Source: Candidatus Kaiserbacteria bacterium RIFCSPHIGHO2_01_FULL_53_31
GTDB taxonomy: Bacteria; Patescibacteriota; Minisyncoccia; Phycocordibacterales; Phycocordibacteraceae
Assembly (NCBI GenBank): GCA_001781095.1
Contig: MFKU01000005.1
Location: 3,651 to 67,650 of the forward strand
DNA length: 64,000 nucleotides
Direction of reading: 5' to 3'
Positions within the stretch are counted from its first letter, which is position 1; each line of letters starts with the position of its first letter. A program made the position numbers and the translations under genes. A model generated the notes under the pieces. It saw nothing but the letters and a program-made list of their open reading frames with translations, ran no database searches and was not told the DNA's origin. Shown in pieces: positions 1,259-43,975 of the stretch.

Positions 1259-2332
1259 CTATCTTCCCCGCCCGTAAAATTTCTTGAGAAGCGCAACGTG
1301 CTCAGCATAGGAGTCAGAGCAGTGAAAATAGCCGGAGTCGTCGTGGAAATAATACATGCATGAGGTGTTTTTCGGGTTGAGTGCAGCGACAACCGCAGCA
1401 ACGGACGGGCTTGCAATCGGCGTCGGCGGCAATCCCGAGTGCAGGTAGGTGTTATACGCTGACTTCCGGTATCGGTCATTCGGCACGACCTTCGGCCACC
1501 AGGTTCCTGCCGCGGGACTGCTTGCTTTTGCGTATTGAAGTGTCGCATCGATCTGCAAATTCATATTAAGAAAAAGTCGATTCCAGATAATGCCTGAGAT
1601 GATGCGCATGTCCTCTGACCCGCCGGCTTCGCGTTCGATGAGGGAGGCGACGGTTAACGCTTGTGCGAGCGGCACCACTTGCTCGGTCGATGTTCCGTAA
1701 TGCGAAAGAATGTTTTGATAAAAACGATCATTCACAAGCGATTGCGCTGCAGCAGGTGTTGTGCCGGTTGTCACAAAATAGACGCCAGCCGCAAATGACC
1801 CTTCTGAGAGTGGAAGTGTCGAGTCCTCTTTTGCAGTGAGGAATGTCTGTCGCTCTGTCTTATTCCAGCCCAGCTGTTTTCCGAATGCACTTGCGACTTG
1901 TTCTTTCCGCATGCCGGGCTCGATGGTGACAAATCTACCTGGTACTGTCGCGATACTCTGATACCACGGTGCTTCCGAAATCGATGTTGCTATCAAAGTG
2001 AGTACGCGTCCGAAGATGCTTCCGGTATTTCCGGCCGCTGCTTGCAGTGGGGAGTTTTCTCCATCAAGAAATAAATTCACCTCCTCGTCTTCGATGATCG
2101 TCTTGTTCTTCGGATTAACAGTGACAGGGAATGGCTGGGTCACAGCAGAAGCGCTCTGGTCCTGCGTGTGCTCGACGATACGGCCGAGAACGGTCGGCAG
2201 TGCAATCACGATGGTGAGAGACAGCATGCCATAAAGCATGGCTCCTCCAATAATTGCGACTACACGTCGTTCATCTCGTTTCCGGTCAGACGGATCGGGA
2301 TGACTAGCAGGCGAGCGCCTTAAGAAATTCAT
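1259..2332 (-). CDS. mltG: endolytic murein transglycosylase MltG/YceG-like
   Basis: N-terminal TM helix; conserved YceG motifs LIEREAG, IISGIIWNRL, YNTYLHSGLPPTPIASP, and C-terminal YYFH...HCSDSYAEH. Confidence 0.75.
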   Translation of the reverse strand: MNFLRRSPASHPDPSDRKRDERRVVAIIGGAMLYGMLSLTIVIALPTVLGRIVEHTQDQSASAVTQPFPVTVNPKNKTIIEDEEVNLFLDGENSPLQAAAGNTGSIFGRVLTLIATSISEAPWYQSIATVPGRFVTIEPGMRKEQVASAFGKQLGWNKTERQTFLTAKEDSTLPLSEGSFAAGVYFVTTGTTPAAAQSLVNDRFYQNILSHYGTSTEQVVPLAQALTVASLIEREAGGSEDMRIISGIIWNRLFLNMNLQIDATLQYAKASSPAAGTWWPKVVPNDRYRKSAYNTYLHSGLPPTPIASPSVAAVVAALNPKNTSCMYYFHDDSGYFHCSDSYAEHVALLKKFYGRGR

Positions 2333-2403
2333 TATAGTTCATAATAGCTGAGTCAGAGCGGATCGGCAAAGCACGATATATTTACAGAGTTTAACGGCGT
2401 ACA

Positions 2404-5400
2404 TCAGTTCGGCCAACTCCCGTTGCAATCGCCGACCAGCGTGCTTGAGAAGTTTAGCGTCTGTGACGCCGAATCAAAAGTGAGAGAATCGGGCGACAAC
2501 GATGTCAGCCGCCATTTCGTGGTATCGGCGATTTCACCCATATTGCCGACCGTATATTTGAGCACGTGGATCGCGTCATTTATATCGACCGTGTCATCAT
2601 CACTCGTGTCACACGCATAGTTGATAAAGTCCTGGAATTGAGGCTGCGGCACCGTGGATACCTCTTTCCCTACCGCAAGAAACAGAACAGCTACCGCATC
2701 TAAAATATCAATTGAATCGGAAGCACCAGCATATGTTGCACTCGCGGCATACGTACCGGCAGGGATGTTCGTCATGGAGTAATAGCCAAGCACATCGGTA
2801 GTAGCTGAAGCGACAAGGGTGGAGTCCGACGGGTTAATGAGCCGAACCGTCGCTCCGGAGATCCCCTTGCTTGAGGGTCCAGAATACTTGATAGTGCCGG
2901 AGAGCGTTGCGAGTGTGCTATCAGGTCCCGCCACAAAAGGAGTCGATACACAAAGAGCGGGATCATTGGGTAGTATGTCGGCCCTCGCATCAGGACAGAA
3001 TACGAGTGTATGTGCGCCCGGAGAGACCGAGATGAACCGGTTAGAAGGAACGGTAATGGTTCGTGATTCTCCAGCGGTCATAGGATCTACGAGTGCGGTA
3101 TAGAATCCTGGAGGAAGTCCGCGATCGTCGCCGTAGATACAATAATCCGCTGTTTTGTCCATGCAGAAGCGAGCCGTGAAGCTCTTCGTAATTGCAGGCC
3201 CAAGATTCTCGATGACGCCTGAGTAACCTATTGGTTGGTGGTCGGAGTCATAGGTGACGACTGGCGCCTGCGCTCTGATACTTGTAGTCGAAATGATAAA
3301 TGAATTGTCATTAGATACTATTTCGTTACCCTTATAATCCGTTGACTGGGCACGATAATGGTAGGTTATGTTCGGTTTCAGGTTATTGATGGCTATGGAA
3401 TGGTTAAGGACTAATGTAGGGTTTGGCGTCATGAGAGCAGAACTTCCATATGTCGAATCTCTGCCGTACTCAACCTGAGTATTGGCAACCTGGTTCGTGT
3501 TCCAAGAGACGGTAACGCTTGATGGGCTTAGCACGGCATAAGAGACATTCGAAATACGGGGAATATCTAAGAATCTTACTACGTTAAAATGCGCGAGCCC
3601 TGGAGGGATAGGGAATCTAGCCACGTTTTTCTGCAGCGATCCATCATAGGCCAGAATGTTGTAAAAATGTGCACCTTCCGTCGGATAGACAATCGACGGA
3701 GAATTGCATGATTCAGTCTGCCGATAAGGCGGGTTAAAGACACAGTCGGTGTCAGTGCCGCTCACGGTGATTCTCATTTTGCTGATGCCGTTTGTATCGG
3801 TACTCGTTGCGGACACAAAAATCGGAACGCCGGTCACGTCCAGCCACTCGAGAGAGGGATTCACTCCTACGGCATTTATCGTCGGGGGTGCGCTATCTGA
3901 GTTCGCGGACCTTTCTGCAACAGAAGCCGTCGTTACCATGTTCGTCGAATCCCAGACGGTTAAGACGAGCGTAAATGTTCCCGGTCCCGGAACAGAAATA
4001 AAGGGCGGCGGAATCACGGCATACGAACCGCTCAACACCCCTGCTTCGTTCACGGTGATACTCGGGCATGTTGTGCTGCAATTTACAATGCCCCATCTGA
4101 AGCTGGCCAAATCGCCATTTACGTCTGATGCCGTCGCACCCTCGTGCATAAAGTAGCTGGTGTCTATCACATCGGGAGCTCCCGTAATTACATGCGGTGC
4201 AGTAGCGGCGGGCGGGGCTGAGTTTAAGGCGACCTGAAACGTGATTTTATCCGTTGCGACACTCGTAATGGGACCAACCGTGACTCTGTGTATCGGATCA
4301 TAAAACACACGTACACCGTCATGAGTTTGTGTGAGTGCAACCTGATCTCTGTCAACGCCGTCCCGAGAACTGCTCACGTCGTATCCGGGGCTCATATCCA
4401 ATTGCGGATACGCAATCGAGCCGTCAGGATTTGTATATTTCTGATAGATAAATATACCGTCAAGGTTTGCTCGCGGGTCGCGTATGTTCCCTCGCCAATC
4501 GGTCCACGGATACTCAGGGTACGATTCGCCCGGATACGCTAGTCTGGAATCTACCCCGATAGGTTGGCGATATTCAATATAATAGGTCGGTACTGACTGA
4601 CCGGGCAGAGTTATCTTTGCAGCGACCTTGCCCGTGGATGCTTGTGCGGGCATGATCTCAAGAGGACTTATTTGATAGGTACCCGACTGTGTGATATTGA
4701 GCAATGAATCTCGATCAAGCCAGCCGAACGTCTCCTTGAAGAATGCATTCGAATGCATTCCCCATAAGTATCCCGGCGAAGAAAGAAAATCGAAATTATT
4801 TGCATTTTCTCGAATTGAGCAGCCGGAGTTAGATGCAACGATACCTGGGGGACAGTCGAGTATGCTCGCATGTGCCGGATTGAGTGCGACTGTTGCAGTG
4901 CCGAACGTATGCCCGAGCTCGTGCTCGAGCGAGTAACCAAGCGACTGCGTAAATGCCGTCTGGATGGAATAGTTTTGTCCGCCAGAAGAGAGAGGAAGAG
5001 CGGATTCGTGGGGACTTGTACCTTGAACGCCGGATTGGTGATAAAAAAAACAATCATTCGTCTGGTCGGTAGTTCCTTGCTGCGCGATGATTATGACACG
5101 ATCATATTGAGCAATATCAATTTGCTTGGCGGTGATGGAGGATTGGATTTCAGCAGGTGAAGGGTATTCGCACACGCCGCTCACAACGGCGTTTCTGGGT
5201 AGCCGTTCCCAGGGATATACAAGGCCTGTTAGGGTTACTTTTCCATATGATATTTCTCGGTAAAAATTACTCACCTCGCCGCTGAATATCGCATTTGTGG
5301 CCTGCTCTACCGTGAATGTCCGCCGAGGATTCCCAGTCCCATCGACTGGAGAATCTGTGAAATCATAGAGAAGAACGGCGACTTTCGCCGTACCCACGGT

Positions 5401-5508
5401 CGTCGGGATAATACTAATGACAGGAGCAGAAGTAAGGGCAGAAGTGATAACAGGAGACAGTATTATCGCAGCACCCAGTATAATCACTAATTTCGTACCG
5501 TTACTCAT
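2404..5508 (-). CDS. large secreted zinc metalloprotease (HExxH) with FN3/PAP-N-like, carboxypeptidase-regulatory-like and dockerin-like C-terminal domains
   Basis: Signal peptide; HELGHTFG motif; N-terminal DFTD...FYREISYG and YIEYRQPIG motifs shared with the paralog at 5630; ...GATVRLINPSD...GYY...IPAGTY (CarboxypepD_reg-like); C-terminal DAVAVL...DINDAIHVLKY dockerin-like repeats. Confidence 0.7.
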   Translation of the reverse strand: MSNGTKLVIILGAAIILSPVITSALTSAPVISIIPTTVGTAKVAVLLYDFTDSPVDGTGNPRRTFTVEQATNAIFSGEVSNFYREISYGKVTLTGLVYPWERLPRNAVVSGVCEYPSPAEIQSSITAKQIDIAQYDRVIIIAQQGTTDQTNDCFFYHQSGVQGTSPHESALPLSSGGQNYSIQTAFTQSLGYSLEHELGHTFGTATVALNPAHASILDCPPGIVASNSGCSIRENANNFDFLSSPGYLWGMHSNAFFKETFGWLDRDSLLNITQSGTYQISPLEIMPAQASTGKVAAKITLPGQSVPTYYIEYRQPIGVDSRLAYPGESYPEYPWTDWRGNIRDPRANLDGIFIYQKYTNPDGSIAYPQLDMSPGYDVSSSRDGVDRDQVALTQTHDGVRVFYDPIHRVTVGPITSVATDKITFQVALNSAPPAATAPHVITGAPDVIDTSYFMHEGATASDVNGDLASFRWGIVNCSTTCPSITVNEAGVLSGSYAVIPPPFISVPGPGTFTLVLTVWDSTNMVTTASVAERSANSDSAPPTINAVGVNPSLEWLDVTGVPIFVSATSTDTNGISKMRITVSGTDTDCVFNPPYRQTESCNSPSIVYPTEGAHFYNILAYDGSLQKNVARFPIPPGLAHFNVVRFLDIPRISNVSYAVLSPSSVTVSWNTNQVANTQVEYGRDSTYGSSALMTPNPTLVLNHSIAINNLKPNITYHYRAQSTDYKGNEIVSNDNSFIISTTSIRAQAPVVTYDSDHQPIGYSGVIENLGPAITKSFTARFCMDKTADYCIYGDDRGLPPGFYTALVDPMTAGESRTITVPSNRFISVSPGAHTLVFCPDARADILPNDPALCVSTPFVAGPDSTLATLSGTIKYSGPSSKGISGATVRLINPSDSTLVASATTDVLGYYSMTNIPAGTYAASATYAGASDSIDILDAVAVLFLAVGKEVSTVPQPQFQDFINYACDTSDDDTVDINDAIHVLKYTVGNMGEIADTTKWRLTSLSPDSLTFDSASQTLNFSSTLVGDCNGSWPN

Positions 5509-5629
5509 GACCTTATTTTAGATAATCATTTCGTTCATCTCAACTCTTACAATACAGGAAATAACGCACGGATATAGGAATATGCACAATTCTACTAGAC
5601 AGCGGAAATGTGTAGTATCATAGGTATAA

Positions 5630-6694
5630 ATGAGAAAGATCCTCACAGTAGGGACTATTTTTGTAAGTGGCATCGCAGTGGCAACCCTCCTCGCTGTAGT
5701 TTTCTTCAGTCTTTTCAGGCCAGTGAGTTATGCCCAAACCTCTCCGGATGTGAAAGATGACCAGAAAATGCTTGTTATTTTGGCAAATTTTAAGGATACA
5801 ACCGTACTCTCTCCAAATCCCGAACAGGTTCTAAAAACAATGGATCTCGTCAACCAGTTTTATCAAGAAAATTCCTACTATAATGCGGCTATTGACCGCG
5901 GCATCAAAGTAACCGGCGTGAAGAATCCCGACCGAGGGGCCGACGTTGTTGGCGTATACACACTCCCGATTTCCAACGACTGTTCGTTTAGCCCAGTAGC
6001 AGGTGCCGCCATAAGTGCCGCTAACAATGATGTTGATCTGACGCAATACACTGGTGTCGTGATTCTGGCGCCGTTCAATTGTCCGTGGTCAGGAACAGAT
6101 TTCCCCGTTACTCTGCAATTTGCTGCGAAAAATGGTCCGGTGAGTTTATTCGTCAATGAAGCGGGGCTCCCTTCACCGTATACGGACGCCCAGATCGAGC
6201 CCAGCGCACAAACAATTGCTCACGAAATCGGACACGCACTTGGACTTGGACATGCAGACATGCTCGATTGCGGCGATGTCGCTCTTGCCGGCACTTGTAC
6301 AGATGTACCCTATCTCGGATATTTCGGAATCATGGGTTATACCGTGACTGACATCGACGCTATCCAGAGAGAGGTGCTTGGTTGGTTGAGTTCCTCAAAC
6401 ATTCAGACGGTAACATCAAGCGGCCGGTACACAATCGAACCTCTTGAGACTGCGAGCAACGGAGTAAAAGTATTAAAAATCCCGCGTGTAACCTCAAAAA
6501 TAAAAACGCAGTATACAGTCGATGGAAGTACTGAGACTTGCGATTCTGCAGTCTCAACGGCTTGCAAATATCCCTATTTCTACATCGAATATCGACAACC
6601 GATCGGCTTTGACACGCGGTTACCGTCCAAAATCTTTACCGGTGCGCTTGTTCATATAGGTCCTGGGGGCCCTACGGCCCTGCCAAATCCTTAA
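5630..6694 (+). CDS. secreted metzincin-like zinc metalloprotease domain protein (paralog of the 2404..5508 N-terminus)
   Basis: Signal peptide; HEIGHALGLGH (HExxHxxGxxH); shares NFKD...FYQENSY and YFYIEYRQPIGFDTRL blocks with the large paralog; its stop overlaps the next start (TAATG). Confidence 0.65.
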   Translation: MRKILTVGTIFVSGIAVATLLAVVFFSLFRPVSYAQTSPDVKDDQKMLVILANFKDTTVLSPNPEQVLKTMDLVNQFYQENSYYNAAIDRGIKVTGVKNPDRGADVVGVYTLPISNDCSFSPVAGAAISAANNDVDLTQYTGVVILAPFNCPWSGTDFPVTLQFAAKNGPVSLFVNEAGLPSPYTDAQIEPSAQTIAHEIGHALGLGHADMLDCGDVALAGTCTDVPYLGYFGIMGYTVTDIDAIQREVLGWLSSSNIQTVTSSGRYTIEPLETASNGVKVLKIPRVTSKIKTQYTVDGSTETCDSAVSTACKYPYFYIEYRQPIGFDTRLPSKIFTGALVHIGPGGPTALPNP

Positions 6695-8178
6695 TGCCTG
6701 AGTCTCTACTGGTCGTGACGAAACCGGCTCCCGGCAGTAGTAGAGACATTGTCGCGAAACCTAGTCTATATGCTACCCTTCAAGAAGGCCAAACGCTTTC
6801 CGATCCAGATACAGGGAATACCATATCAGTCGTTTCCGCTTCATTCAATACTCTCGTTGTCGATGTAAAAGTCGCGGGAAGATCTGCAGCAATTACTTCC
6901 CCTTATCATGGCGAGACGGTGTCAGGAACTTTTGCTCCCGTTGTTTCAATTGTCGACCCCGATCAGGAAGTCGATACAATAAACTACACAGTTACTAGTG
7001 GTACTCGTTCTATTACCGCTTCATCCTCTGTGTACCCATATTCAGCAACAATAAATACAATAGGATTCCCCGATGGGCCCGCGCGGTTGAGCGTAACCGC
7101 AACATATAAAACGCCAGATCTTTCCGGCAAGACAACAGCAAGTAGCTATATCCTTATCTCAGTTAAAAACGCCGCCACGTCTAGACTTACCCTGGGCTTC
7201 GGAGGTACTGGTAACGGATCTATATCGACTGGTCAAACGAGTTACAGCCAATATACCAATTTGAATTTCAGCACGGGTTCTCAGATAATAATCAAGGCAG
7301 TGCCTGCGTGGGGATCAACATTTATGGGCTGGGTGTCCCCGAGCTCTCCACAATGCGATCCTCATGATCAAACATGTTCACTCACCGTACGTGGTGACAC
7401 CTACGTCACCGCGTCTTTTGCGCTTAGTCCCACCCTCACGGTTACCCCTCCTACGGGTGGTTCGATATCTTCAAATGATGCGCGAATCTTTTGCGGCTCA
7501 CTCTGCAGCGCCAGTTATCCAAATGTAAACTTTTACTTCCCGCCAACTATAACTCTGACCGCCATTCCTGATGCAAACCACGATTTTGTCAAATGGAACG
7601 GTGATTGTGCCCTCATACAGTCGAATACGTGCACACTAAAGATGACAAGCAAACATAGCGTTTCTGCATCATTCGGACTGAGGACCGGTGCATCCTCTTT
7701 GAGCGGGACAATAACCTATGCGGGATTATCGCATGCCGCGATACCCAAAGCGACCGTTAACCTAGTCAGCAGTGCAAGCAGTCACGCTGTCCTTTCGGTT
7801 ACTGCAGATTCAACTGGCACCTATACGTTCAACAATGTACCCGCGGGAACCTATACAGTAGGTGTCTCGTCGCCCTCGCTCTCCACGGCCAATATGGTGG
7901 ACATGACTGATGCAGTCGCTGTCTTAAAAGACACGATCCGCGATACGCCCTTCTCCCTCATTCCAGAGGCATGCGATATAAACCAGGACGCCTTCACCGA
8001 TCTTAATGATGCCATTTCTATACTTCGCTACGCAATCGGTAACGTGAATCCAAACATAGGTGCATGGGTTTTTGTGCCGCAAGGAGCGAATCCGATTACG
8101 CTCGCTGCCGGGGGTTCCAAGACGCTTAACTTTATGGGCTACATTCGCGGTGATTGCAGCGGCGATTGGAGGCCCTAA
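6694..8178 (+). CDS. secreted repeat protein with InlB-B-repeat-like modules, CarboxypepD_reg-like domain and dockerin-like C-terminus (paralog of the 2404..5508 C-terminus)
   Basis: GWVSPSSPQCD...C and KWNGDC...C repeat modules; GTITYAG...ATVNLVS...GTYTFNNVPAGTYTV; C-terminal DAVAVLKD...CDINQDAFTDLNDAISILRYAIGN. Confidence 0.55.
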   Translation: MPESLLVVTKPAPGSSRDIVAKPSLYATLQEGQTLSDPDTGNTISVVSASFNTLVVDVKVAGRSAAITSPYHGETVSGTFAPVVSIVDPDQEVDTINYTVTSGTRSITASSSVYPYSATINTIGFPDGPARLSVTATYKTPDLSGKTTASSYILISVKNAATSRLTLGFGGTGNGSISTGQTSYSQYTNLNFSTGSQIIIKAVPAWGSTFMGWVSPSSPQCDPHDQTCSLTVRGDTYVTASFALSPTLTVTPPTGGSISSNDARIFCGSLCSASYPNVNFYFPPTITLTAIPDANHDFVKWNGDCALIQSNTCTLKMTSKHSVSASFGLRTGASSLSGTITYAGLSHAAIPKATVNLVSSASSHAVLSVTADSTGTYTFNNVPAGTYTVGVSSPSLSTANMVDMTDAVAVLKDTIRDTPFSLIPEACDINQDAFTDLNDAISILRYAIGNVNPNIGAWVFVPQGANPITLAAGGSKTLNFMGYIRGDCSGDWRP

Positions 8179-8187
8179 AACAACAGG

Positions 8188-8218
8188 CCGCCCAAAGAGG
8201 AACGGCTCTGTTGGGCGG
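8188..8218 (-). terminator. palindromic hairpin (CCGCCC-AAAGAG-gaacgg-CTCTGT-TGGGCGG) with a T-run on the minus strand; member of a repeated element family
   Basis: Inverted repeat seen directly; minus-strand hairpin followed by TTGTTTTAGGG; related copies at 18603 and 23491. Confidence 0.4.
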
Positions 8219-8241
8219 CGGAATTCGAACCGGGCTGTAGC

Positions 8242-8367
8242 TTAGCTGTGATGGAAGAATACCAACCGCCACAGTCCAACTGCGCCGCAGACGATGACAA
8301 TCAGCGTTATTGCGGCAGGAACGTAGCGGCGCAGAGCGCTTTCTCGTTCACCGCAAAGGTACTTCAT
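8242..8367 (-). CDS. possible 41-aa single-TM small protein (MKYLCGERESALRRYVPAAITLIVIVCGAVGLWRLVFFHHS)
   Basis: ORF below the track cutoff; GGAG about 12 nt upstream; hydrophobic core; followed by the hairpin at 8188. Confidence 0.3.
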   Translation of the reverse strand: MKYLCGERESALRRYVPAAITLIVIVCGAVGLWRLVFFHHS

Positions 8368-23166: not shown

Positions 23167-23490
23167 ATAATGCTAAAACGCGTTCTCAAGCATTCACAGC
23201 CAACTGCTGCATGATGACCGCAGTATAATACAGTGCGAGCGTCTTATCAAGTCGTCGCCGAAGTCATTTGTGACCCGAAGCACCCTGCCGACAAGATGGC
23301 AAATGCACCCGGGGTTTTCTCCGTGAGAATGGGCTTCGCAGCTCTTCACTCGCACGCGCTTCCTAACGAGGTTCTCGTACGCTTTCATCCGACCCTCCTT
23401 CCCGTCTCTCTCGTTCTCTGTCGCAGTTATAGCACACATTTGACGATGCTCTGTTCTGTGGTTGCAGTTCTCTACACATTACAAAATGAG

Positions 23491-23525
23491 CCGCCTGACA
23501 GAGCCGAGTGGCTCTGTCAGGCGTT
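23491..23525 (-). terminator. palindromic terminator hairpin (CCGCCTGACAGAGCC-gagt-GGCTCTGTCAGGCG) + ATTTTGT on the minus strand; repeated-family member
   Basis: 13-bp perfect stem; follows the GNAT gene end. Confidence 0.5.
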
Positions 23526-23617
23526 CGCAATCAGCGGTGCAAATCCGCAATGTCCGCGAGTAGCTGCGGTCTCGTTACGCGCACGGGACTACGCGATAAC
23601 CTGTTCCATCGTGAAGA

Positions 23618-24088
23618 TCATCTCTCTTCCGTTTGTAATTTGCGAGACATTACGAGACGCGGCGAGCTGCTCTTCCCGTGATCCTCGAGCCTGCCGGTCA
23701 CGACGAACCCGTGGCGTTCGTAGAGTTGCCGTGCTCGGTTTTGCTCATGCGTCCGTAGGCTCATCGTGCAGGCTCCGGCTCGACGCATCTTTGCGACGAT
23801 TGTTCGCAGTACATCGCCTCCGATCCCGTGCCCTTGATACGTGGGCTCGATCGCGATCTCGGCGAGGTATGCGTGCTTCCCTGGAAGCATCTGGACCTGA
23901 ACCAATCCAACATTTTTGGTCTCGTACAGGACCATCCAGACGAGTGCCAGTGGATTCTCGATCTCCTTTCTCGCCTCGTCCACATTCGTGGTGACCAGAT
24001 TAATAGGGGACTCAACGCTGCGCTCAATGCGTACATAGTCGTCTGCGTCTCGAGCGGTCGCTCGTTTCAGCCGTACCTTCGCTTTCAT
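23618..24088 (-). CDS. GNAT family N-acetyltransferase
   Basis: QGHGIGGDVLRTIVAKMRRAGACTMSL...NRARQLYERHGF (motifs A/B). Confidence 0.8.
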   Translation of the reverse strand: MKAKVRLKRATARDADDYVRIERSVESPINLVTTNVDEARKEIENPLALVWMVLYETKNVGLVQVQMLPGKHAYLAEIAIEPTYQGHGIGGDVLRTIVAKMRRAGACTMSLRTHEQNRARQLYERHGFVVTGRLEDHGKSSSPRLVMSRKLQTEER

Positions 24089-24627: not shown

Positions 24628-24719
24628 ATGCTCACTCTATCATACGATCATAGAGTCCAGGGTGTCCTTTCTTATTCCAGTGGCGGGTAGTATAGTGCTT
24701 GCGGAAGGAGGTGATACAC

Positions 24720-25418
24720 GTGATCGGGATGAAGAATTTCCAAGTCGGGCAGTTCTTTGAAGATGTCGGGCATGCTCTTATTGGTGGCGAGCTCACAAGA
24801 CACGAGGATGGAGACATAGTGCTCTGGGACGCGTCGGCTACTATCGAAGTCAAGGCGTCAGGTCTTCAGTCGAGCTATGGGTATCGATTGGATATTGACC
24901 AGATCGATCGATATGGGGAGCTATCGGCATTTCCATTCGATCGGGCATGGTACATGTTTTTTGCGTACAACAACCCGTCAGTGCGTAACGAAAAAGGAGG
25001 ACGTTCGAGCGCATTGTCGAGACACAGTGACCGCGTCGAAGTGAATCGCTATTTGGCTCGAGCGGTCTCGTGGTTTGTGCTCCTCGACCATTCCATCGTT
25101 GCTCAGTGGCGAGCACTGCGACGCGTTTCGACAAAGAGCGTGATGGGGCACCTCGGGACAAAGACAGTCGACGTGAGGTGTCGAGAGGTTCACAGCCTTG
25201 CGAATGGCGGCTTCGCTACCGGTCTCACTGAGCTCGACCTCGATCCTGCGCAATTTGCCGTGATGGACAGCAAAGTCGACATCGTGGTCGACACTGATCT
25301 TTTCGAGAAGTACCGAATGAGATTCCCGATTACAGTCGTCACACCCGTGAAGGAAATAAAACATATTAAAAAAGCTTTACGGGTGCACAGCGGTATCGAG
25401 CTGTTGAGCCGAAGTTGA
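24720..25418 (+). CDS. hypothetical protein with a PD-(D/E)xK nuclease-like motif
   Basis: GDIVLWDASATIEVKAS (D...E-x-K on adjacent predicted strands); the GGAAGGAGGTG SD lies inside the ORF-track N-terminus, so the start is moved to the GTG/ATG downstream. Confidence 0.45.
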   Translation: MIGMKNFQVGQFFEDVGHALIGGELTRHEDGDIVLWDASATIEVKASGLQSSYGYRLDIDQIDRYGELSAFPFDRAWYMFFAYNNPSVRNEKGGRSSALSRHSDRVEVNRYLARAVSWFVLLDHSIVAQWRALRRVSTKSVMGHLGTKTVDVRCREVHSLANGGFATGLTELDLDPAQFAVMDSKVDIVVDTDLFEKYRMRFPITVVTPVKEIKHIKKALRVHSGIELLSRS

Positions 25419-25557
25419 ACCCGTCGCGGAAATGGCAATCGCGGCGAGTTTTGTCATTTTTTTAAATTGGACATGAAAACGAAAAGACCATCCACAGAAT
25501 GAACAGTCTCTTCGCTGTTTCGATGGACGGTCACGATTACTGTTTTCGGCGTCAATT

Positions 25558-25878
25558 TTACTTTGAGGTTGCTGACTGCCGACCCGCGATGAAGATGTCT
25601 CGGAGTAGTTGTAGAACAAAAATGGGCTCTGGGACATCTCGCCGATCGTCAGCTTCATACGCGAGCTCAACTACCGAAGCCAGCGCACGTACCGCTGGGT
25701 CGTCAACGGCCATTGGTATGAACGCGACCACCCTCTCCCCGTTGCCTGCGTGAGCTGCTTCTAGCCGCACTTCCTCCTTCGTATTGAAGAGGGAATCCAT
25801 GTGGACCACAATACGCTCGGGCAAACTTTTCCTTGGATCTCCCTCATACACAATCAGATTCTTCAACATGCTGGTCAC
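25558..25878 (-). CDS. hypothetical protein (106 aa)
   Basis: Strong SD GGAGGTGA 6 nt before the ATG; the overlapping 25377..25670 ORF in another frame may be an artefact or a frameshifted continuation. Confidence 0.5.
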   Translation of the reverse strand: MTSMLKNLIVYEGDPRKSLPERIVVHMDSLFNTKEEVRLEAAHAGNGERVVAFIPMAVDDPAVRALASVVELAYEADDRRDVPEPIFVLQLLRDIFIAGRQSATSK

Positions 25879-26114
25879 CTCCTCTGACTTCAGAGTAGTA
25901 CATTAACAAAGAAATGTCAAATTACTCGTACTCCCGTTCGGCTGTTTTACGAATTTCATTGAATCTATCCGTTGGTGGGGATTAGCATAGAAACGGTGCG
26001 GAGGTTGCGGTAGCTGAGCGCTGAATGATATGCACAATATAATACACGAAGTTCATGTTTGCTGTAAATGTTTCTTCATAAGAACGGCATAGATAGTGAA
26101 TTAATATATTTCGT

Positions 26115-26381
26115 ATGAAACACGCAGAGATAAAGAGTAACAAGAAGGTAGCGAAAACGGCACGGGACGCAGTGCTGAACGTGGCAGATCGCGTTCAAAA
26201 CCTTAAAGAAAAGACATGGCGGGCGTGGGAAGAGTCAAAGCCGCGTCAACAAAAGATCAAGGAGAATTTGAGGGTAGCTGGCGAGAAGGTCGTCGCTTTC
26301 GGGAAAGACGTCGGCACGGGCTTCAAAGAAGGCATAGCTGAAGTCCAAAAAAGGAATAAGAAAAGAGGCGCTAGTGTTTAG
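26115..26381 (+). CDS. small lysine-rich helical hypothetical protein
   Basis: 88 aa, amphipathic/basic; no motif. Confidence 0.45.
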   Translation: MKHAEIKSNKKVAKTARDAVLNVADRVQNLKEKTWRAWEESKPRQQKIKENLRVAGEKVVAFGKDVGTGFKEGIAEVQKRNKKRGASV

Positions 26382-26439
26382 TTCTCTGGCGTGGGCAATC
26401 TGCCGGTGGGCAGGAAGTGTGTTCGAACCTGTACATGAA

Positions 26440-26473
26440 AAGACAAAGCCCCGGTTGAGGGACTTTGTCTTGG
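26440..26473 (-). terminator. hairpin (GACAAAGCCCC-ggttga-GGGACTTTGTC) + TTTTCATG on the minus strand
   Basis: Follows the minus-strand gene ending at 26492. Confidence 0.4.
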
Positions 26474-26491
26474 AACGAGACTGAGTCTTGC

Positions 26492-26737
26492 TTAGCCCTG
26501 GCAATCCGTATTCGAGTTGTTATAGCCCGTGGCTCCCACATCCTGACCGACTGCTCCGTCGTGATATCCCGGCGTTCCGCCCAACGCACCGAGCCATCCG
26601 AAATTACCATTTACATTGGCAAACGCACCATGAGTCGCACCACATGGAGCTGGGGCTGCAAATGCCGTAGCAGCCAACGAACCGAATAAAAGGGCACTTG
26701 CGCCCGCACCCAGAAGAACTTTCTTAAGTGTTCTCAT
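26492..26737 (-). CDS. small secreted Gly-rich peptide with two Cys
   Basis: Start at MRTLKKVLLGAGASALLFGSLAATAFA (Sec signal); the mature part is Gly-rich with Cys near both ends. Confidence 0.5.
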   Translation of the reverse strand: MRTLKKVLLGAGASALLFGSLAATAFAAPAPCGATHGAFANVNGNFGWLGALGGTPGYHDGAVGQDVGATGYNNSNTDCQG

Positions 26738-26869
26738 ATGTCGGTAAATATTATCGGTTAAGTTTTCAGTGTACACCTCGTGTCAGAAGCTATGATGAAG
26801 GAGGGGATGTGCGAGAGTAAAAATATAAAAAGAAAGCCCGCCCCCCGGCGCGAGACGAAAGGGTCGGCG

Positions 26870-27184
26870 CTAGGAGCGGGCCGCGAGCGCATACGGCATA
26901 AAGTAGTGTTCCATGTCCTCTAGGGTGCTGCCATATTCTGTCCCGCCAAGCACTGCATCAGAAAATACTTCCTTGGCGATGGCGAGCTCATCTAATCTGC
27001 CTTTCCACCGCTGGTCTCGTTGGGTGAGGTCAATAAGCATCAATGCTTGCTCGACTGCATGGTCAAAGCGCTGTGGGTCCTTGCCGTGCCACTTTGCCGC
27101 ACGACCAACCTCAGAGCCAATGTTGCCGAGTTGCTCCATGAGCGTGAATCTCGACCACGATTGTTGGATGCCGGAAACGGTCAT
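26870..27184 (-). CDS. possible MazG-like all-alpha NTP pyrophosphohydrolase
   Basis: LMEQLGNIGSEVGRAAKW resembles the MazG EExxE/GEL helix; weak. Confidence 0.35.
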   Translation of the reverse strand: MTVSGIQQSWSRFTLMEQLGNIGSEVGRAAKWHGKDPQRFDHAVEQALMLIDLTQRDQRWKGRLDELAIAKEVFSDAVLGGTEYGSTLEDMEHYFMPYALAARS

Positions 27185-27555
27185 GTCGATGACACACGCT
27201 TGTTCACAACCTCACGTATTGCTGCCTGTATGGCAAGATCCTCCACCGTTCTCGTTCGATTCCCGTACAGTGGTTTCAGGTTAACCATGGAATCAAATTC
27301 AATAAAGTCATTCCCAGTTTTGTCAAGCAGGAGATTAATTCCCCATGTGTCTTGGCGTTTCGAATCATGCTGCTCTATCAGAAGCTTTTCGATTTCAGAG
27401 TGGAACTCGCCACCAACCCCGATGATTCCTTGCGGCACGTCTACCACTGCCTTGATCGTGTCACCGTAGTACTCGTGCGCGAGCACTTTAAGCTCAGCGA
27501 GGCTGATGCGGTCAGTGACAATTCTGGTTTCTGCCATGGTCTCATTATCATACAC
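27181..27555 (-). CDS. hypothetical protein (124 aa), translationally coupled to the downstream gene
   Basis: Stop/start ATGA overlap with 26870..27184; no motif. Confidence 0.5.
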   Translation of the reverse strand: MYDNETMAETRIVTDRISLAELKVLAHEYYGDTIKAVVDVPQGIIGVGGEFHSEIEKLLIEQHDSKRQDTWGINLLLDKTGNDFIEFDSMVNLKPLYGNRTRTVEDLAIQAAIREVVNKRVSST

Positions 27556-27875
27556 TTTGTAGTAAAGTGCGAATCAACTGAGTATTCTGAAAGGAGGGAA
27601 AGGCGGAAAAAGGGACAGGCCCCATTGTTTAGGAATTTCCATGTTGTAATTCGGAAACAATGTACTAAAGAGGAAACCATTAGACCACACGAAAACCTAA
27701 AGAATGGTGACTGTCCCCATTATTCCATCACCCGCCATTACCCCGCTGGGTGCTTGCCCTTCGAAGTGCTTCACGAAGCAAGGGAGGATGTTCGAACCTT
27801 AATACAAAAAAGAAAGCCACCACTCCGATGAGGAAGCAGTAAGCTTTCCTTTATGAGTGGTGGGCTTGTTGTGTG

Positions 27876-28640
27876 TTATGCCAGGAGACCACGCTCGAGA
27901 CCATACCGAACTGCTTCGGCAGGATCCTTTCGTACCTTGTCCTCGAGCTGCCGTCGTACTCGGCGGACCTGTTCGGGAGGATACGCTTTACGGAGGATCA
28001 TCAGCAACGGTCGACGGGTGTAGCTCCTCCCGAAGTATTGACCCGTGAGTCCGTACTCTTTGCGGAGCTTACGCCGCTTTGTGCGAACGATCTCGTCCGC
28101 CTCTCGTTCGGCTCGCTTCTTTTCGGGCGGATCACCTTTCCAAATCCACCCGTAGGGGAGTGGCTCACTAAACTTCACCCAGACTGGAGTAAAGCGGACC
28201 CGATACACCCATCCGTTACAGGACAGGATGCGATTCGTGAGGGACTCGGTCAACTGAAATTGCGACACGAGTGAATCCCAAAGCGAATCGTCATCGACTC
28301 TCTCTTCAGGCAGCGGTGGAGGGTTGTCTGCATCGTACAGCATGAGATTCGCAACATGTTGCTCGATGAAGTTCTCTCTTTCGCGATATTGCGAGATGAT
28401 ATAGTGCCCTCCGTCGCGATCGGGTTTAGCCTCCCGTAGGAAGGGAATCTTGAGATCGAGCTTGTTCGCTTCGATCAAGTCGAGGATGGGCCTGATGCCG
28501 CCCCATCTGTCATGTCCCCAATGAGGCGCAAGACGCCAACCACTCAAGAGGCTGTCGCGGTGAGCATTGGCGACTCGCTCTGGTACGTATAGTACCCAGC
28601 CGCGGGTCCGTAATTGGTCAAAGAACTGTGTTTTGTTCAT
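27876..28640 (-). CDS. hypothetical protein (254 aa) with a basic C-terminal tail
   Basis: Start set at MNKTQFF with SD AAAGGGAGA; C-terminal KRAEREADEIVRTKRRKLRKEYG; no recognised family. Confidence 0.5.
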   Translation of the reverse strand: MNKTQFFDQLRTRGWVLYVPERVANAHRDSLLSGWRLAPHWGHDRWGGIRPILDLIEANKLDLKIPFLREAKPDRDGGHYIISQYRERENFIEQHVANLMLYDADNPPPLPEERVDDDSLWDSLVSQFQLTESLTNRILSCNGWVYRVRFTPVWVKFSEPLPYGWIWKGDPPEKKRAEREADEIVRTKRRKLRKEYGLTGQYFGRSYTRRPLLMILRKAYPPEQVRRVRRQLEDKVRKDPAEAVRYGLERGLLA

Positions 28641-28877
28641 ACATCTCCCTTTGCTGTGCTTTTGTCCTTTCGGACGCAGCATTGCAGGATCACGTGTGGT
28701 CACTGGTTCGTCCACACCAACCAAAGCTCTGGCGTCTTTATACCACACCAATCAAAATCTGTCAGCTCCGCTGGCTGCTGTGCCCGTCCGTAGTTTCTGA
28801 ACGGAGGAGGGGATGACCCGTCTTGTTGGAGCAAAGCCGAGGCGGATGTTCAAACCTGTTTTTGCTATACTTAAACC

Positions 28878-29126
28878 ATGAAGAATGACTGGATTGAAGT
28901 AGATAATACTCTACAAAAGACATTCGCGTTGAGTGATTTTAAAGAGGCGCTTGCGTTTACGAATATGGTCGGCGAAATTGCAGAGCGTCTCCAGCACCAC
29001 CCGGATATTTGCATCAAGGATTTCAACAAGGTATCCATTGCAACCTCGACACATGAGGAGGGTAACATCATAACAACAAAAGACAGAGATCTTGTCGATG
29101 CCATTGATAACCTCAATATTTCCTAG
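28878..29126 (+). CDS. pterin-4a-carbinolamine dehydratase (PCD/DCoH)
   Basis: ERLQHHPDICIKDFNKVSIATSTHE matches the PCD signature [E]-x-H-H-P-x5-[YW/F]...H-[DE]. Confidence 0.8.
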   Translation: MKNDWIEVDNTLQKTFALSDFKEALAFTNMVGEIAERLQHHPDICIKDFNKVSIATSTHEEGNIITTKDRDLVDAIDNLNIS

Positions 29127-29263
29127 CTCCGCTGGGTTGGTGATGTTCGAACCGTTTTTGTGTAGAAATAGGAAAGGCCTCACGTGCGAAGAGTGAGTCC
29201 GTGTGAGGACTAACCTATCGGCCGTGAAGTCTTGATGATTCGCACACAGATACTTGAAATGCT

Positions 29264-29683
29264 TTAGGCGTCGCCGATGTAATGAATCGAGAGACCGAGC
29301 AGATGAGAATTGGTCATGACAAGACGACCTACCGCTTCCTCTTGCGTCTTGCCGATTTCGCACGATTCTTCAGGAGCTCCTAATATGCGAGCGAGATGCA
29401 CAACGCGCTCGGGCTCAGCCTGAACTTCCTCAACAATTATTCGGTGCATGGCACAACCCCTTTCCATTGCGCACTCGACTGCCGGCGGTTGCGAAGGAAC
29501 ATCAGCAGAAATTTCTTCTTCAGTCACTGCCAGTTCGTCACAGTCGCATTTCCGCATGACGCGCCAGCAGACCTCGCCCGAGACACTGTTTTCTGCCCTG
29601 CGAAAATGGACCACACCACGGGCGCAGTAGTAATGGAAATAGTTTGCCCAACTACCGCCCGTTCTTACCAATCTTGCAATCAT
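29264..29683 (-). CDS. Cys-rich hypothetical protein (possible metal-binding)
   Basis: GGAGG SD 8 nt before ATG (MIARLV...); clusters YYCARG, KCDCDE, ECAMERGCAMH. Confidence 0.45.
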   Translation of the reverse strand: MIARLVRTGGSWANYFHYYCARGVVHFRRAENSVSGEVCWRVMRKCDCDELAVTEEEISADVPSQPPAVECAMERGCAMHRIIVEEVQAEPERVVHLARILGAPEESCEIGKTQEEAVGRLVMTNSHLLGLSIHYIGDA

Positions 29684-29785
29684 AGTGCGCCTCCTACGCA
29701 TCAATTCGCTTACTGCCGTTTTGGTCTGAGACAGATCAACGTACCACTTGCAGGATACACTGTATCTTTATATTGTCAACTTTTG

Positions 29786-30109
29786 CTCCGGGAGCAGGAC
29801 TCGAACCTGCAACCAACGCCTTACACTGATCCTAAAGTTTCCTAAAGGCGTGGACTATATCATCACCGTGTCTCGGTGCGAGGCGCTTCCTGGCCACAAC
29901 TTTTCAGCTGTTGGCGAGTACTCCCCGAAGGGATAGTCTCTGAACCTTCCCGCCAGCAATGCTATAGCATAGCTTTGGGCGGGCTTGGCTGCTGATTGTC
30001 CTCGGCGTTACCGTTAGGGTTTCCAGCAATTCACCTCGTTATTCAATCTCGAATTCCTTCGAGATGCTGCCATCGACAGGGCGCTGCTCTACCATTGAGC
30101 TATCCCGGA
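29786..30109 (-). tRNA. tRNA gene (most likely Asn-GUU; Thr-UGU is the alternative) interrupted in the anticodon loop by a ~252-nt group I intron
   Basis: Exon 1 UCCGGGAUAGCUCAAUGGUAGAGCAGCGCC-CUGU; exon 2 UAA-GGCGUUGGUUGCAGGUUCGAGUCCUGCUCCCGGA-G. U1-A72 plus G73 and the loop CUGUUAA match bacterial tRNA-Asn; CCA is not encoded. Confidence 0.75.
29824..30075 (-). ncRNA. group I self-splicing intron (IC3-like, tRNA-anticodon-loop type)
   Basis: The core matches cyanobacterial tRNA-Leu and Azoarcus tRNA-Ile introns: GGAAACC-UAA, CAGCCAAGCC, and the P7 strand CAGAGACUA with its partner AUAGUCC; ends in G; no ORF. Confidence 0.7.
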
Positions 30110-30174
30110 ATATTTTGAACCAAACACGCCCAAAAGGGCGTGAATGCATATTAACTCAAAATTCACGCCTCGCA

Positions 30175-30690
30175 ATGCTACAGTACAAACACATGGGCGT
30201 GATGCTACGACTCTCGAGCTCGGCATTTGAAGATTGTGGAATCATTCCGGCGAAGTATACGTGTGATGGTAGCGCGACAATCTCGCCACCACTCACGATC
30301 TCAGGAGTGCCAGACGGGACGAAGTCATTGGTGCTCGTTATGGATGACCCGGACATTCCACAGGTAGCCAAAGATGCGCGAGGCATCGACTCATTTGACC
30401 ACTGGGTGCTCTACAATATTCCTCCCGAGACAAGAGAATTACCCGAAAGCGACAGCGGGAATGTTGGCGTCGGGGAGCTTGGCCTCAATGGGTCGGGCAG
30501 TGTTGGGTACGCGAGCCCTTGTCCGCCACCTCATCACGAGCCCAAGGAGCATTGCTACATCTTCGCGCTGTATGCGCTACGAGATACGCTCTCGTTTAAA
30601 GAAACACCGAGCAAAGAGCAAGTGCTTCAGGCGATGGAATCACTCCTTATCGCAGGGGTGACACTTATTGGACGATATTCACGGGCGTGA
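30175..30690 (+). CDS. YbhB/YbcL family phosphatidylethanolamine-binding protein (PEBP)
   Basis: AKYTCDG...ISPPL...SLVLVMDDPDIP...DHWVLYNIP...GY..PCPP motifs; start moved to 30175 because the ORF-track start overlaps the tRNA. Confidence 0.75.
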   Translation: MLQYKHMGVMLRLSSSAFEDCGIIPAKYTCDGSATISPPLTISGVPDGTKSLVLVMDDPDIPQVAKDARGIDSFDHWVLYNIPPETRELPESDSGNVGVGELGLNGSGSVGYASPCPPPHHEPKEHCYIFALYALRDTLSFKETPSKEQVLQAMESLLIAGVTLIGRYSRA

Positions 30691-33458: not shown

Positions 33459-34747
33459 GTTGATTCAATTTTCGCGCCGAGTTGCTGTAATCGATGCACG
33501 ATATCTTCGTAGCCGCGATTGATGCTGTAGACATTGCGGAGCATAGAGCGGCCTGTGGCCGCGAGCATTGCGACGAGAATGATCGTCGCAGGTCGAAGCG
33601 CCGGCGGACAGATGACCTCAGCGGCTTTCAGCTTCGTCGGGCCCTCTATCGAGATGCGGTGTGGATCATGCAGTATCGTCGTCGCGCCGAGGCGGTCGAG
33701 CTCGGTGTAATAAATAGCGCGCTTCTCATACACCCAATCATGAATCAAGGTTGTTCCTTTGGCCTTTGTTGCGATCACTGCAAAGAAGGGAAGATTATCG
33801 ATGTTCAAACCCGGGTATGGGCGTGCATGAATTTTCTCGGGGAAAGCGACCAACTCGGAAGGCTCAAGCGATATATCAACGAGTTTTGTGATTCCGTTTT
33901 CTGAAATACGATTATTAGAAATTAAAAACTGCAGTCCCATTTTCTCGAGCACGAGTAACTCAACTTCAAGAAATTCTATTGGTGCGGCAGAAATAGTTAT
34001 TTCTGAGCCAGTGACGGCCGCCGCAGCGATAAAAAACATCGCGTCAGTTGGATCCTCGGCGATGCTGTAACTAATGTCTCGATTAATTTCCTCGACGCCG
34101 TGGACGGTGAGCGTAGTCGAGCCAATGCCATCTATCTCGACACCGAGATCACGCAGAAAACCGCAGACTTCTTGGACTTGATAATTTGAGGACGCGTATT
34201 TAATGATACTTGTCCCGGGGATGTGTGCAGCTGCAAGAAGCGCATTAATTGTTGCGGTGTCGCTCGATTCGTAGAGGATAATCTCTGCCGGCTCGAGCCT
34301 GGTGTGTGAGATGTCGTAGGTGTTTGAATGCGCAGTAATCGAGACACCGAATTTCTCAAGTGCCATCAAGTGTGGACGTGCAGAACGGAGACCCAAGGTG
34401 CAACCACCCGACTGCGGCAGCTCAAATTTGTCAAAATGGTGGAGTAAGGGGCCGATGAACATCAAGATGCTGCGTGTCTTCATCGCAGCCTCGCTATTAA
34501 TAGAAGCGAGATCGATCTTGTCAGGTGTTTTGATCACAAGGGTGCAATCCTTCCACTCCACATTCACGCCAATTGACTGCAAAACCTCGATTAAGCGATT
34601 TACTTCTTCGATCTTTGGCACGTGTTCAAGGGTGGTTGTGCCGCGATTCAAAAGCGAGGCGGCGAGGAGGGCAACTGCGCCATTCTTGGAGCGGCTCGTC
34701 TCGACCTTCCCCGTGAGTTTACGGCCGCCCTCAATGACGAAATTCAT
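33455..34747 (-). CDS. murA: UDP-N-acetylglucosamine 1-carboxyvinyltransferase
   Basis: MNFVIEGGRKLTGKVETSRSKNGAVALLAA...; start at the Met preceded by AAGGAGAA. Confidence 0.9.
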   Translation of the reverse strand: MNFVIEGGRKLTGKVETSRSKNGAVALLAASLLNRGTTTLEHVPKIEEVNRLIEVLQSIGVNVEWKDCTLVIKTPDKIDLASINSEAAMKTRSILMFIGPLLHHFDKFELPQSGGCTLGLRSARPHLMALEKFGVSITAHSNTYDISHTRLEPAEIILYESSDTATINALLAAAHIPGTSIIKYASSNYQVQEVCGFLRDLGVEIDGIGSTTLTVHGVEEINRDISYSIAEDPTDAMFFIAAAAVTGSEITISAAPIEFLEVELLVLEKMGLQFLISNNRISENGITKLVDISLEPSELVAFPEKIHARPYPGLNIDNLPFFAVIATKAKGTTLIHDWVYEKRAIYYTELDRLGATTILHDPHRISIEGPTKLKAAEVICPPALRPATIILVAMLAATGRSMLRNVYSINRGYEDIVHRLQQLGAKIEST

Positions 34748-34784
34748 TTCTCCTTGCATTAAATCTAGTGTAACATTGAACGCA

Positions 34785-43164: not shown

Positions 43165-43975
43165 CGCACTGCTCGCGTTTTCGAATCTATCGTGGGGCGC
43201 TGTCGCGCTTCTCGTAGCCCTCGTCGTGCTCGCCCTACGGCTTATCGCTCCAAATATGTTCTGGAAAATATCGTCGCCCGTTTTCGGCGCGGCGGACACG
43301 CTTGCGAGTGCAAGCCACACGCTGCTTTCCGGATTTAATGACACGGCGGCTCTTGCGATCAGAAATGAACAGCTCGCAGAGCAGAACAATGCATTGTCGC
43401 TAGAGAATCAGGCGTTGCAACAGAAAGTAACGGGCCTACTGTTACTGCTGGGTAGAGAGAAGACGGGTGGGACCGAGTCGGGCATTCTCGCGAGGGTCGT
43501 CGCGCGTCCGCCGACGAGTCCATATGATACCCTTCTTCTCGCCGCGGGAACGAACATAGGCATCACAGAGGGAATGGGAGTCTTTGGTGCGGGCGGCGTT
43601 CTTCTCGGCAGCATTGAAGCAACATCAGCCGATTATTCGCAAGCAGTCCTTTTATCTGCTCCAGGCGTGCGCAGCGACGCCTGGAGCGGACGCAATAACG
43701 TTCCGATTACTCTCCTTGGTGCAGGCGGAGGAGCCGTGAATGCCTCGGTCGCGCGCTCCGCAGACATCGTGGAGGGCGATGCAATTTTCATATCAGGACC
43801 AGGGACACTTCCCATTGGTTTCGTTACGCGTATTGATAGTAATCCATCTTCACCGTCGGTTACCCTTCGCATCACGCCTGCGCTCAATCTGTTTTCGCTC
43901 ACCTGGATAAGTGTGCGTGCGACAGGAGCGACCTCGCTCATTTCAATTCCTGTAGCGACCTCGACAATTCCATGA
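43136..43975 (+). CDS. mreC: rod-shape protein MreC
   Basis: N-terminal TM, coiled coil (QLAEQNNALSLENQALQQKV), beta-rich C-terminus; start uncertain (overlaps the mreB end). Confidence 0.7.
   Translation: MKKTFLAKRNALLAFSNLSWGAVALLVALVVLALRLIAPNMFWKISSPVFGAADTLASASHTLLSGFNDTAALAIRNEQLAEQNNALSLENQALQQKVTGLLLLLGREKTGGTESGILARVVARPPTSPYDTLLLAAGTNIGITEGMGVFGAGGVLLGSIEATSADYSQAVLLSAPGVRSDAWSGRNNVPITLLGAGGGAVNASVARSADIVEGDAIFISGPGTLPIGFVTRIDSNPSSPSVTLRITPALNLFSLTWISVRATGATSLISIPVATSTIP

Follow-up and report, generated by a model that had tools for sequence, protein, structure and literature searches.

Two predicted secreted metzincin-type proteases with dockerin-like tails in a Candidatus Kaiserbacteria population, one of them split by a one-base difference in a G-run

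We analyzed a 64,000-nt stretch of the genome of Candidatus Kaiserbacteria bacterium RIFCSPHIGHO2_01_FULL_53_31 (contig MFKU01000005.1, positions 3,651 to 67,650; hereafter the window), a reduced-genome bacterium of the Candidate Phyla Radiation (CPR), and focused on a locus at 2404-8178 that contains two divergently transcribed genes for predicted metalloproteases. Our reading, to which we assign a probability of about 0.78, is that the locus encodes two secreted metzincin-type proteases with divergent dockerin modules and that the second is a single 849-aa gene frameshifted in a run of five G residues (G5). The first gene is an intact minus-strand open reading frame (ORF) of 1034 aa (2404..5508; OGG49034.1, A2678_01035), whose protein is present in identical form on 21 public contigs. 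The second is represented in the window by two plus-strand ORFs, a 5' fragment of 354 aa with a hydrophobic N-terminus and the catalytic domain (ORF2, 5630..6694) and a 3' fragment of 494 aa (ORF3, 6694..8178), annotated in GenBank as OGG49035.1 (A2678_01040, 354 aa) and OGG49036.1 (A2678_01045, a truncated call of 178 aa). The positions and lengths of all three ORFs in the original prediction, an earlier reading of this DNA from its letters, were reproduced exactly. By exact-sequence look-up, the locus was found on numerous public contigs, and also in metagenome-assembled genomes in GenBank that are named Candidatus Kaiserbacteria bacterium.

One protease gene and two alleles of a G-run

The reading frames predicted that one extra base in the plus-strand G-run at 6665..6669 would fuse ORF2 and ORF3, and public sequences contain this form. 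Contig L011 (ERZ27254836) was the same as the window across 2037 nt except for six G (G6) in place of G5; with 0 other differences between the two alleles over this length, it is tract length that toggles the reading frame. The L011 frame reads through the junction (...GPGGPYGPAKSLMPESLLVV...) and stays open to the end of the contig (...LVHIGPGGPYGPAKSLMPESLLVV...). An exhaustive protein search recovered an 849-aa protein (P0018) identical to the conceptual ORF2-ORF3 fusion, and a cluster look-up revealed further 849-aa variants from other sources with one (P0165) and three (P0166) substitutions. G6 together with an uninterrupted 849-aa ORF was identified in at least four public assemblies and G5 in approximately 13-17 contigs. 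Every locus spanning the run other than L011 was G5, including loci of JGI, Logan and ENA megahit assemblies and of the original ANAN16 scaffolds. Sources of G5 contigs are SRR2090153 and the runs underlying ERZ27254845, ERZ4903137 and JGI 3300025317, and sources of G6 are ERZ27254836 and SRR3989344.

The fate of the frame in the G5 allele explains the form of the split. The frame shifts after GPGG and continues for approximately 7-8 out-of-frame codons (PTALNP-type residues, with TALPNP at the end of ORF2) to a TAA, the first stop met in that frame; the ATG overlapping it encodes a Met inside the intact protein (…KSLMPE…), and a gene caller would then have picked this codon as a start. The resulting TAATG (6692..6696, plus strand; TAA at 6692-6694 and ATG at 6694-6696, with one A in common) is a by-product of the frameshift and not a designed two-gene arrangement. 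The original prediction was correct that a one-base stop/start overlap exists; the two ORFs that it separates are one gene with a missing G, intact elsewhere.

Comparison with homologues also joined the two ORFs. When the protein was aligned with the 1034-aa paralogue and eight homologues from other phyla, no interruption was seen at the junction, and a conserved block (F.G.L.H...LLDMTP...D.AL..G.TFTDP..G..I.V) extended across the break. A tblastn scan of one genome per species confirmed 219 relatives, distributed over CPR phyla, DPANN archaea, Gammaproteobacteria, Acidobacteriota and other groups, and these read through the junction without a break; among the 80 matches listed, most cover approximately query residues 5-374 or beyond, with the junction at approximately residue 307. 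All domains of ORF3 are of extracellular type, and ORF3 has no hydrophobic N-terminus of its own (maximum Kyte-Doolittle hydrophobicity over 15 residues 1.59, compared with 2.87 for the 1034-aa protein and 2.72 for ORF2). ORF2 and ORF3 are one 849-aa gene split by a 1-bp difference in the G-run.

Across 218 kb of aligned public contigs, which contained no more than four single-nucleotide polymorphisms (SNPs) per contig and two indels in total, the G-run difference was the sole indel of 1 bp. The second indel was an in-frame 3-bp deletion at 6633-6635, 30 nt upstream of the G-run, accompanied by a SNP at 6572 (contig L008/L015). Contig L018 terminated exactly at the G-run, and the assemblies of another sample broke at 6633-6636; contig breaks at polymorphic sites are the expected effect of within-sample polymorphism on the assembly graph. 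Both the G5 and the G6 allele, as seen in assembled contigs, are probably real. As a separate observation, the few indels of this near-clonal population cluster within approximately 35 bp of the protease gene.

The original prediction had left three explanations of the split side by side, namely a natural two-gene arrangement, a recent fission and a sequencing frameshift. A natural arrangement would consist of a 354-aa protease and a 494-aa surface protein translationally coupled via TAATG, and the one-base overlap together with the same split in most public contigs would suit it. We regard it as very improbable and contradicted by the data, since the break lies inside a block that is continuous and conserved in all homologues, ORF3 is without an export signal though made of extracellular-type domains, and one added G restores a perfect 849-aa ORF that occurs in nature and in which the ATG is an internal codon. 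An error of sequencing or assembly, with G6 as the true sequence of the window and the gene intact, would be of a classic type, a change of homopolymer length, and G6 versions do exist; it is nevertheless unlikely, as G5 was reproduced in all other spanning loci, from at least nine samples and with several assemblers, and no other 1-bp indel was seen in the 218 kb aligned.

Full-length protein might alternatively be made from the G5 allele by programmed -1 ribosomal frameshifting or by transcriptional slippage at the G-run. Passage from ORF2 to ORF3 does require a -1 shift in or beside the run, and upstream of its ATG the frame of ORF3 contains no stop for at least 25 codons. Against this, CCU GGG GGC does not conform to the canonical slippery heptamer X XXY YYZ, five G are far below the tract lengths known for polymerase slippage, and the G6 DNA alleles already account for the full-length form. 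Programmed frameshifting was set aside, given that no canonical heptamer is present and DNA alleles explain both forms, and recoding of either kind has in our judgement very little chance of being correct. The data agree with a genuine 1-bp frameshift, carried by the population as a polymorphic allele. This split allele is best read as a truncation or null allele, because its 354-aa product would lack the end of the beta domain and every anchoring module and its 494-aa product would lack an export signal. Intact G6 alleles co-exist with it, and it would therefore represent either a recent segregating loss-of-function mutation or a phase-variable-like on/off switch.

The second of these possibilities invites comparison with the homopolymer-tract contingency genes of Neisseria, Campylobacter and Helicobacter. 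As in those systems, a coding G tract differs by one base between otherwise identical natural alleles, it lies in the gene of a predicted secreted or surface protein, and its length toggles the full-length product on or off. The tract described here differs in comprising only 5-6 G, whereas classical phase-variable switches usually have tracts of 7 or more, and a single recent frameshift mutation would give the same pattern. Only four G/C runs of 6 nt were identified in the 64 kb (at 12314, 26841, 32793 and 51356), and none was longer; all four are outside the long ORFs listed, which suggests that such runs are avoided in coding sequence. The G6 of the intact allele would be the longest coding G/C run in the window and is therefore a plausible mutational hot spot.

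Domain architecture and affinities of the two proteases

The 1034-aa protein comprises, in order, a hydrophobic N-terminus, a catalytic and a beta domain, Ig/fn3-like spacers, a CarboxypepD_reg domain and a dockerin-like tail. Its zinc-site motif is encoded at 4870..4923 (minus strand), where alignments put H213 in the column of the invariant third His. Further along the protein are an fn3 or purple-acid-phosphatase-N-like domain (residues 653-727, 3328..3552, minus strand; Pur_ac_phosph_N, PF16656, 33.5 bits against a cut-off of 30), a CarboxypepD_reg-like domain (residues 868-929, 2722..2907, minus strand; PF13620, 34.0 bits against a gathering score of 32.3) and a divergent dockerin module with a beta-hairpin (residues 930-1034, 2407..2721, minus strand) that ends in GDCNGSW. 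The second gene follows the same plan. ORF2 carries the zinc motif HEIGHALGLGH (nt 6221-6253, plus strand), and ORF3 contains the end of the protease beta domain, an Ig-like region, two InlB-B-like repeats (approximately 7180-7677; Flg_new_2 matched twice, 47 bits), a CarboxypepD_reg domain (7696-7893; PF13620, 41.2 bits against 32.3) and a dockerin-like tail (approximately 7894-8175) with the terminal sequence GDCSGDW, all on the plus strand. The fn3-like, InlB-B-like and CarboxypepD_reg assignments of the original prediction were thus borne out, the first and last above the Pfam cut-offs. The two genes flank a 121-bp divergent promoter region (5509..5629) which, as described earlier, is AT-rich (33.9% GC compared with approximately 50% for the window); a sigma-70-like site at 5543-5515, a consensus match only, faces the minus-strand gene.

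Alignment of the two paralogues, as proposed with the original prediction, revealed clear similarity at the protein level. The N-terminal domains were 27% identical (E 7e-19; residues 1-323 of the 1034-aa protein versus 5-331 of the 354-aa ORF), and this alignment contains both the FY.E.SY and the YIEYRQPIG block that had been noted as common to the two loci. The tails were 37% identical over 169 aa (E 2e-23), an alignment that takes in the final 160 residues of ORF3. These data support a divergently transcribed pair of family-level paralogous metalloproteases with hydrophobic N-termini. The description of the pair as an inverted duplication holds for the proteins but not for the DNA, where an inverted repeat was absent from 2300-8300; duplication at that level was accordingly dismissed, and the term describes a divergent arrangement of old paralogues. 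The 1034-aa copy was the most divergent in the alignment, with 26% identity to the other copy, compared with 32-37% for proteins from other phyla. A recent tandem duplication was set aside on the same figures, as the catalytic domains of the pair are less similar to each other than either is to proteins from other phyla. The word giant, also applied to these proteins, is an overstatement for lengths of 1034 and 849 aa.

The HEIGHALGLGH motif of ORF2, already recognized as metzincin-like, conforms to HExxHxxGxxH, and its H, E, G, H, G and H residues are invariant in the family alignments. The 1034-aa paralogue reads H196-E-L-G-H200-T-F-G, followed by a 7-residue insertion (TATVALN) and then H213, and so matches the motif only with a gap. 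A methionine (M235, …DIMG…) that is near-invariant in the family is replaced by Leu in the 1034-aa protein; its assignment to a Met-turn would need a reliable structure.

Curated peptidase models placed the two proteins near known families. The NCBIfam M6 domain model TIGR03296 matched both (E 2e-8 and 4e-10), at 34.4 and 40.1 bits, where the cut-off is 110.8. The Pfam check proposed with the original prediction gave E 0.32 for Peptidase_M6, and all Pfam zincin matches to the protease domains were sub-threshold; the metzincin motif and matches to InhA by profile and by fold spoke for a protease nonetheless. The best solved relative by family profile was InhA (4yu5_A, E 7.7e-5), aligned in three collinear pieces that include YY.E.R...G.D..L...G..V..AD. 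By fold, using Foldseek, the best match was InhA2 (4yu6_B, E 5.6e-6, TM 0.48, approximately 12% identity), followed by adamalysin/ADAM catalytic domains (E approximately 1e-4, probability 1.00). The M11 model PF05548 gave no match at E<=1 in the window proteins; it matched five of the ten members of the family alignment (best E 1.2e-12), and NCBI gives one homologue the name 'Gametolysin peptidase M11'.

Judged from sequence, the proteins resemble InhA and PrtV (MEROPS M6) as putative secreted zinc endopeptidases of several domains, in which the catalytic domain is followed by a beta domain. They differ in their C-terminal domains, in scores far under the curated cut-off, and in the third zinc ligand, which here is a His (HExxHxxGxxH), whereas M6 is described with HExxHxxGxxD. 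Gametolysin (M11, PF05548) has the same HExxHxxGxxH motif; the characterized M11 enzymes are algal cell-wall lysins. We have therefore filed both proteins, provisionally, as an uncharacterized metzincin family near M6 and M11 and a member of neither. The family is widespread. Within the searches made here, no characterized bacterial member of the YIEYRQPIG subfamily was found, and a literature search on Kaiserbacteria proteases turned up only the unrelated CPR-C4 protease.

Dockerin-like tails and a third tagged protein

The tails of both proteins had been called dockerin-like, with Pfam Dockerin_1 (PF00404) as the proposed test. This model gave no match at E<=1 in either window protein, and a word-indexed homologue search with both tails also returned no match. 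The label was upheld by profile and fold evidence. A two-sequence profile of the tails matched the ScaH dockerin 8ajy_B across both helices (E 1.3e-3), and an exhaustive HMMER search identified 142 cluster representatives of the tail family at E<=1e-3, with the module at the extreme C-terminus in 57 of them. When the profile was built from 26 sequences it gave 31 PDB matches, nearly all of them dockerins (best E 1.9e-9), among them ScaB, ScaH, CelS, Xyn10B and R. bromii Amy. Two family members pass Dockerin_1 itself (P0066 and P0089, 33.7 and 33.4 bits against 22.9), and several others have sub-threshold matches at the same place. The module and Cohesin domains occur together in one protein in two further cases, P0112 (by Pfam) and P0020 (by sequence reading). 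Members of the family, again by sequence reading, include large adhesin-like proteins, proteins with type IX secretion system tails and the CPR proteins described here. An AlphaFold2 (AF2) model of the 1034-aa tail (mean predicted local distance difference test score (pLDDT) 82.6) contained three helices and two strands, and showed a three-helix fold with two antiparallel loop-helix segments. On these profiles and this model, the designation dockerin-like is justified.

The resemblance to the type I dockerins of cellulosomes and amylosomes lies in the two loop-helix segments with a short linker helix between them, and in a canonical D-x-N/S-x-D...D loop before the second helix. This second Ca2+ loop is canonical in CDTSDDDTVDIND and CDINQDAFTDLND. 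The first loop, in contrast, is degenerate both in the window proteins and across the family. The tails also differ from type I dockerins in a 45-residue beta-hairpin extension with an invariant GDxxGxW end, in the CarboxypepD_reg domain fused upstream, in their host, a CPR bacterium in which nothing points to a cellulosome, and in the lack of a cohesin partner in the regions searched. Dockerin-bearing proteins, including proteases, are already known outside cellulosomes; a double-dockerin serine protease (8x39) is one example of dockerins on a protease, and in a cultivated Saccharibacterium a protein with a dockerin domain is essential (PMC10633639).

The extension beyond the dockerin comprises, in the family alignment, W-x-F-x-P, a variable loop, a second strand and the invariant GDxxGxW. 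When this motif was set ahead of helix 1, in register with a canonical loop, and Dockerin_1 was rescored, the 1034-aa tail rose from no match to 16.1 bits (off register, no match), the ORF3 tail from no match to 20.9 bits (off register, 14.3 bits) and the P0021 tail from 16.9 to 25.3 bits (off register, 17.8 bits). These scores, obtained in a test that the same resemblance had prompted and that is therefore not independent of it, would fit a split, circularly permuted first loop in which GDxxGxW is integral to the Ca2+-binding core. A different geometry is suggested by a pair of Cys residues, one before the first Asp of loop 2 (CD…) and one in the C-terminal GDC: both were present in 12 modules, neither in 75 and one only in 1 (Fisher p 6e-14, not corrected for phylogeny). 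This co-variation suggests a disulfide, which would place the C-terminal motif beside loop 2 and link the GDxxGxW extension to the dockerin core there. The two hints do not obviously agree. Nothing relevant on a natural circularly permuted dockerin, or on a variant of this kind, was found in the library searched. That the tail family is a new dockerin architecture under either geometry, and that the G5/G6 tract is in addition a genuine on/off switch of a surface protease, is a tentative proposal that we think doubtful as a whole.

A third protein of the same genome combines CarboxypepD_reg with a dockerin-like tail. This LVIVD-repeat beta-propeller (OGG49245.1; contig L022, 10001-12454; 817 aa, or 810 aa in another assembly) is named 'Dockerin domain-containing protein' in UniRef. 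The three Kaiserbacteria tails were 33-41% alike, closer to one another than to most foreign tails, and the two catalytic domains showed no such pattern, which would fit a shared binding partner. Directly upstream of the third gene is a gene for a DsbA-like thioredoxin, and downstream a VTT/DedA gene; the conserved Cys pair of the tails would fit oxidative folding with such a DsbA-like neighbor.

A search for cohesin-domain proteins had been proposed with the original prediction, which suggested anchoring to a cohesin-bearing surface. No PF00963 cohesin was detected by Pfam (E<=0.001) among approximately 40 ORFs of at least 180 aa across the 64-kb window, nor did the 20 kb surrounding the gene of the third tail-bearing protein contain one, and for this reason the anchoring partner is put forward as a supposition. 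The same absence, together with the lack of a Dockerin_1 match in the window proteins, the degenerate first Ca2+ loop, the GDxxGxW hairpin that canonical dockerins do not have, and the position of 57 of the 142 modules at the very C-terminus, would be in keeping with a generic Ca2+-stabilized C-terminal module, serving glycan or S-layer binding or acting as a secretion or sorting tag, in place of a cohesin-binding dockerin. Set against it are profile and fold matches that are almost exclusively to dockerins, and the two proteins that join the module to Cohesin domains. We consider the generic module a substantial possibility, although not the one that we favor.

Proposed role of the locus and other features of the window

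CPR bacteria rely on other cells or the environment for building blocks, and their surface enzymes are little known. In the model that we propose, each protein would have a hydrophobic N-terminal export signal or anchor, a catalytic and a beta domain and variable Ig/fn3/InlB-B spacers, and would end in CarboxypepD_reg followed by the divergent dockerin module. In the second gene, the G6 tract is one G short in the window and in most public assemblies of this population. Intact enzymes are predicted to be exported and may be held at the cell surface by Ca2+-dependent binding of the tails to a common receptor, where they could degrade extracellular or host-surface proteins and so feed the auxotrophic CPR cell.

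Several points weigh against this interpretation. The alleles were seen at the level of assemblies, and a homopolymer error in the minority G6 assemblies is conceivable; the G5/G6 tract is short beside classical phase-variable tracts. The activity of the 1034-aa paralogue is uncertain because of the 7-residue insertion before its third His and the Leu at the near-invariant Met position, and the protein may be a protease homologue with altered catalysis or with none. For the protease domain, the AF2 model is of moderate quality (pLDDT 65, with 35 residues around the junction below 50), although its catalytic core reaches 75-88. For Dockerin_1 and for every peptidase family, the window proteins stay under the curated cut-offs of Pfam and NCBIfam, and neither the window nor the neighborhood of the third gene yielded a cohesin.

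None of the findings is surprising in kind. Within one Kaiserbacteria population, the same CarboxypepD_reg and dockerin-like tag on at least three predicted exported proteins, two metalloproteases and an LVIVD beta-propeller, points to a shared surface receptor. For annotation, OGG49035 and OGG49036 stand in GenBank as separate hypothetical proteins, yet they are one gene with a segregating 1-bp frameshift. The locus is, moreover, an uncomplicated case in which to study on/off variation in a lineage not yet cultivated.

Elsewhere the window encodes housekeeping functions, namely a LexA-like/Y-family polymerase, MreB/MreC/PBP2, ClpB, RRF, Def/Fmt, RelA/SpoT, ParB and GH130 enzymes. Three ORFs (23233-23994, 24699-25418 and 27876-28751) had no family match, and a stretch of approximately 4.4 kb (25400-29800) contained, except for the last of these, only ORFs of up to 160 aa and no Pfam or Rfam match. 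A group I intron (RF00028) was identified at 29831-30153 on the minus strand (Rfam 67 bits, E 8e-17). The intron stretch holds a tRNA-like 5' half (gggauagcucaaugguagagcagcgcc…), ARAGORN calls no tRNA there, and 29831-30153 is probably an intron-interrupted tRNA gene. The intron overlaps the annotated start of a plus-strand PEBP ORF (30064-30690), in which the PEBP Pfam match starts at residue 61. Two MreB paralogues (E 4e-123 and 1e-125) at 34320-35810 and 42112-45959, together with MreC and a PBP2-type transpeptidase in the same two stretches, constitute a full rod-shape module in a CPR genome. Finally, two adjacent GH130 beta-mannoside phosphorylase-like genes at 51375-55199 (minus strand) lie beside a PMM/HAD-type phosphatase gene, and the three may form a mannoside salvage cluster.

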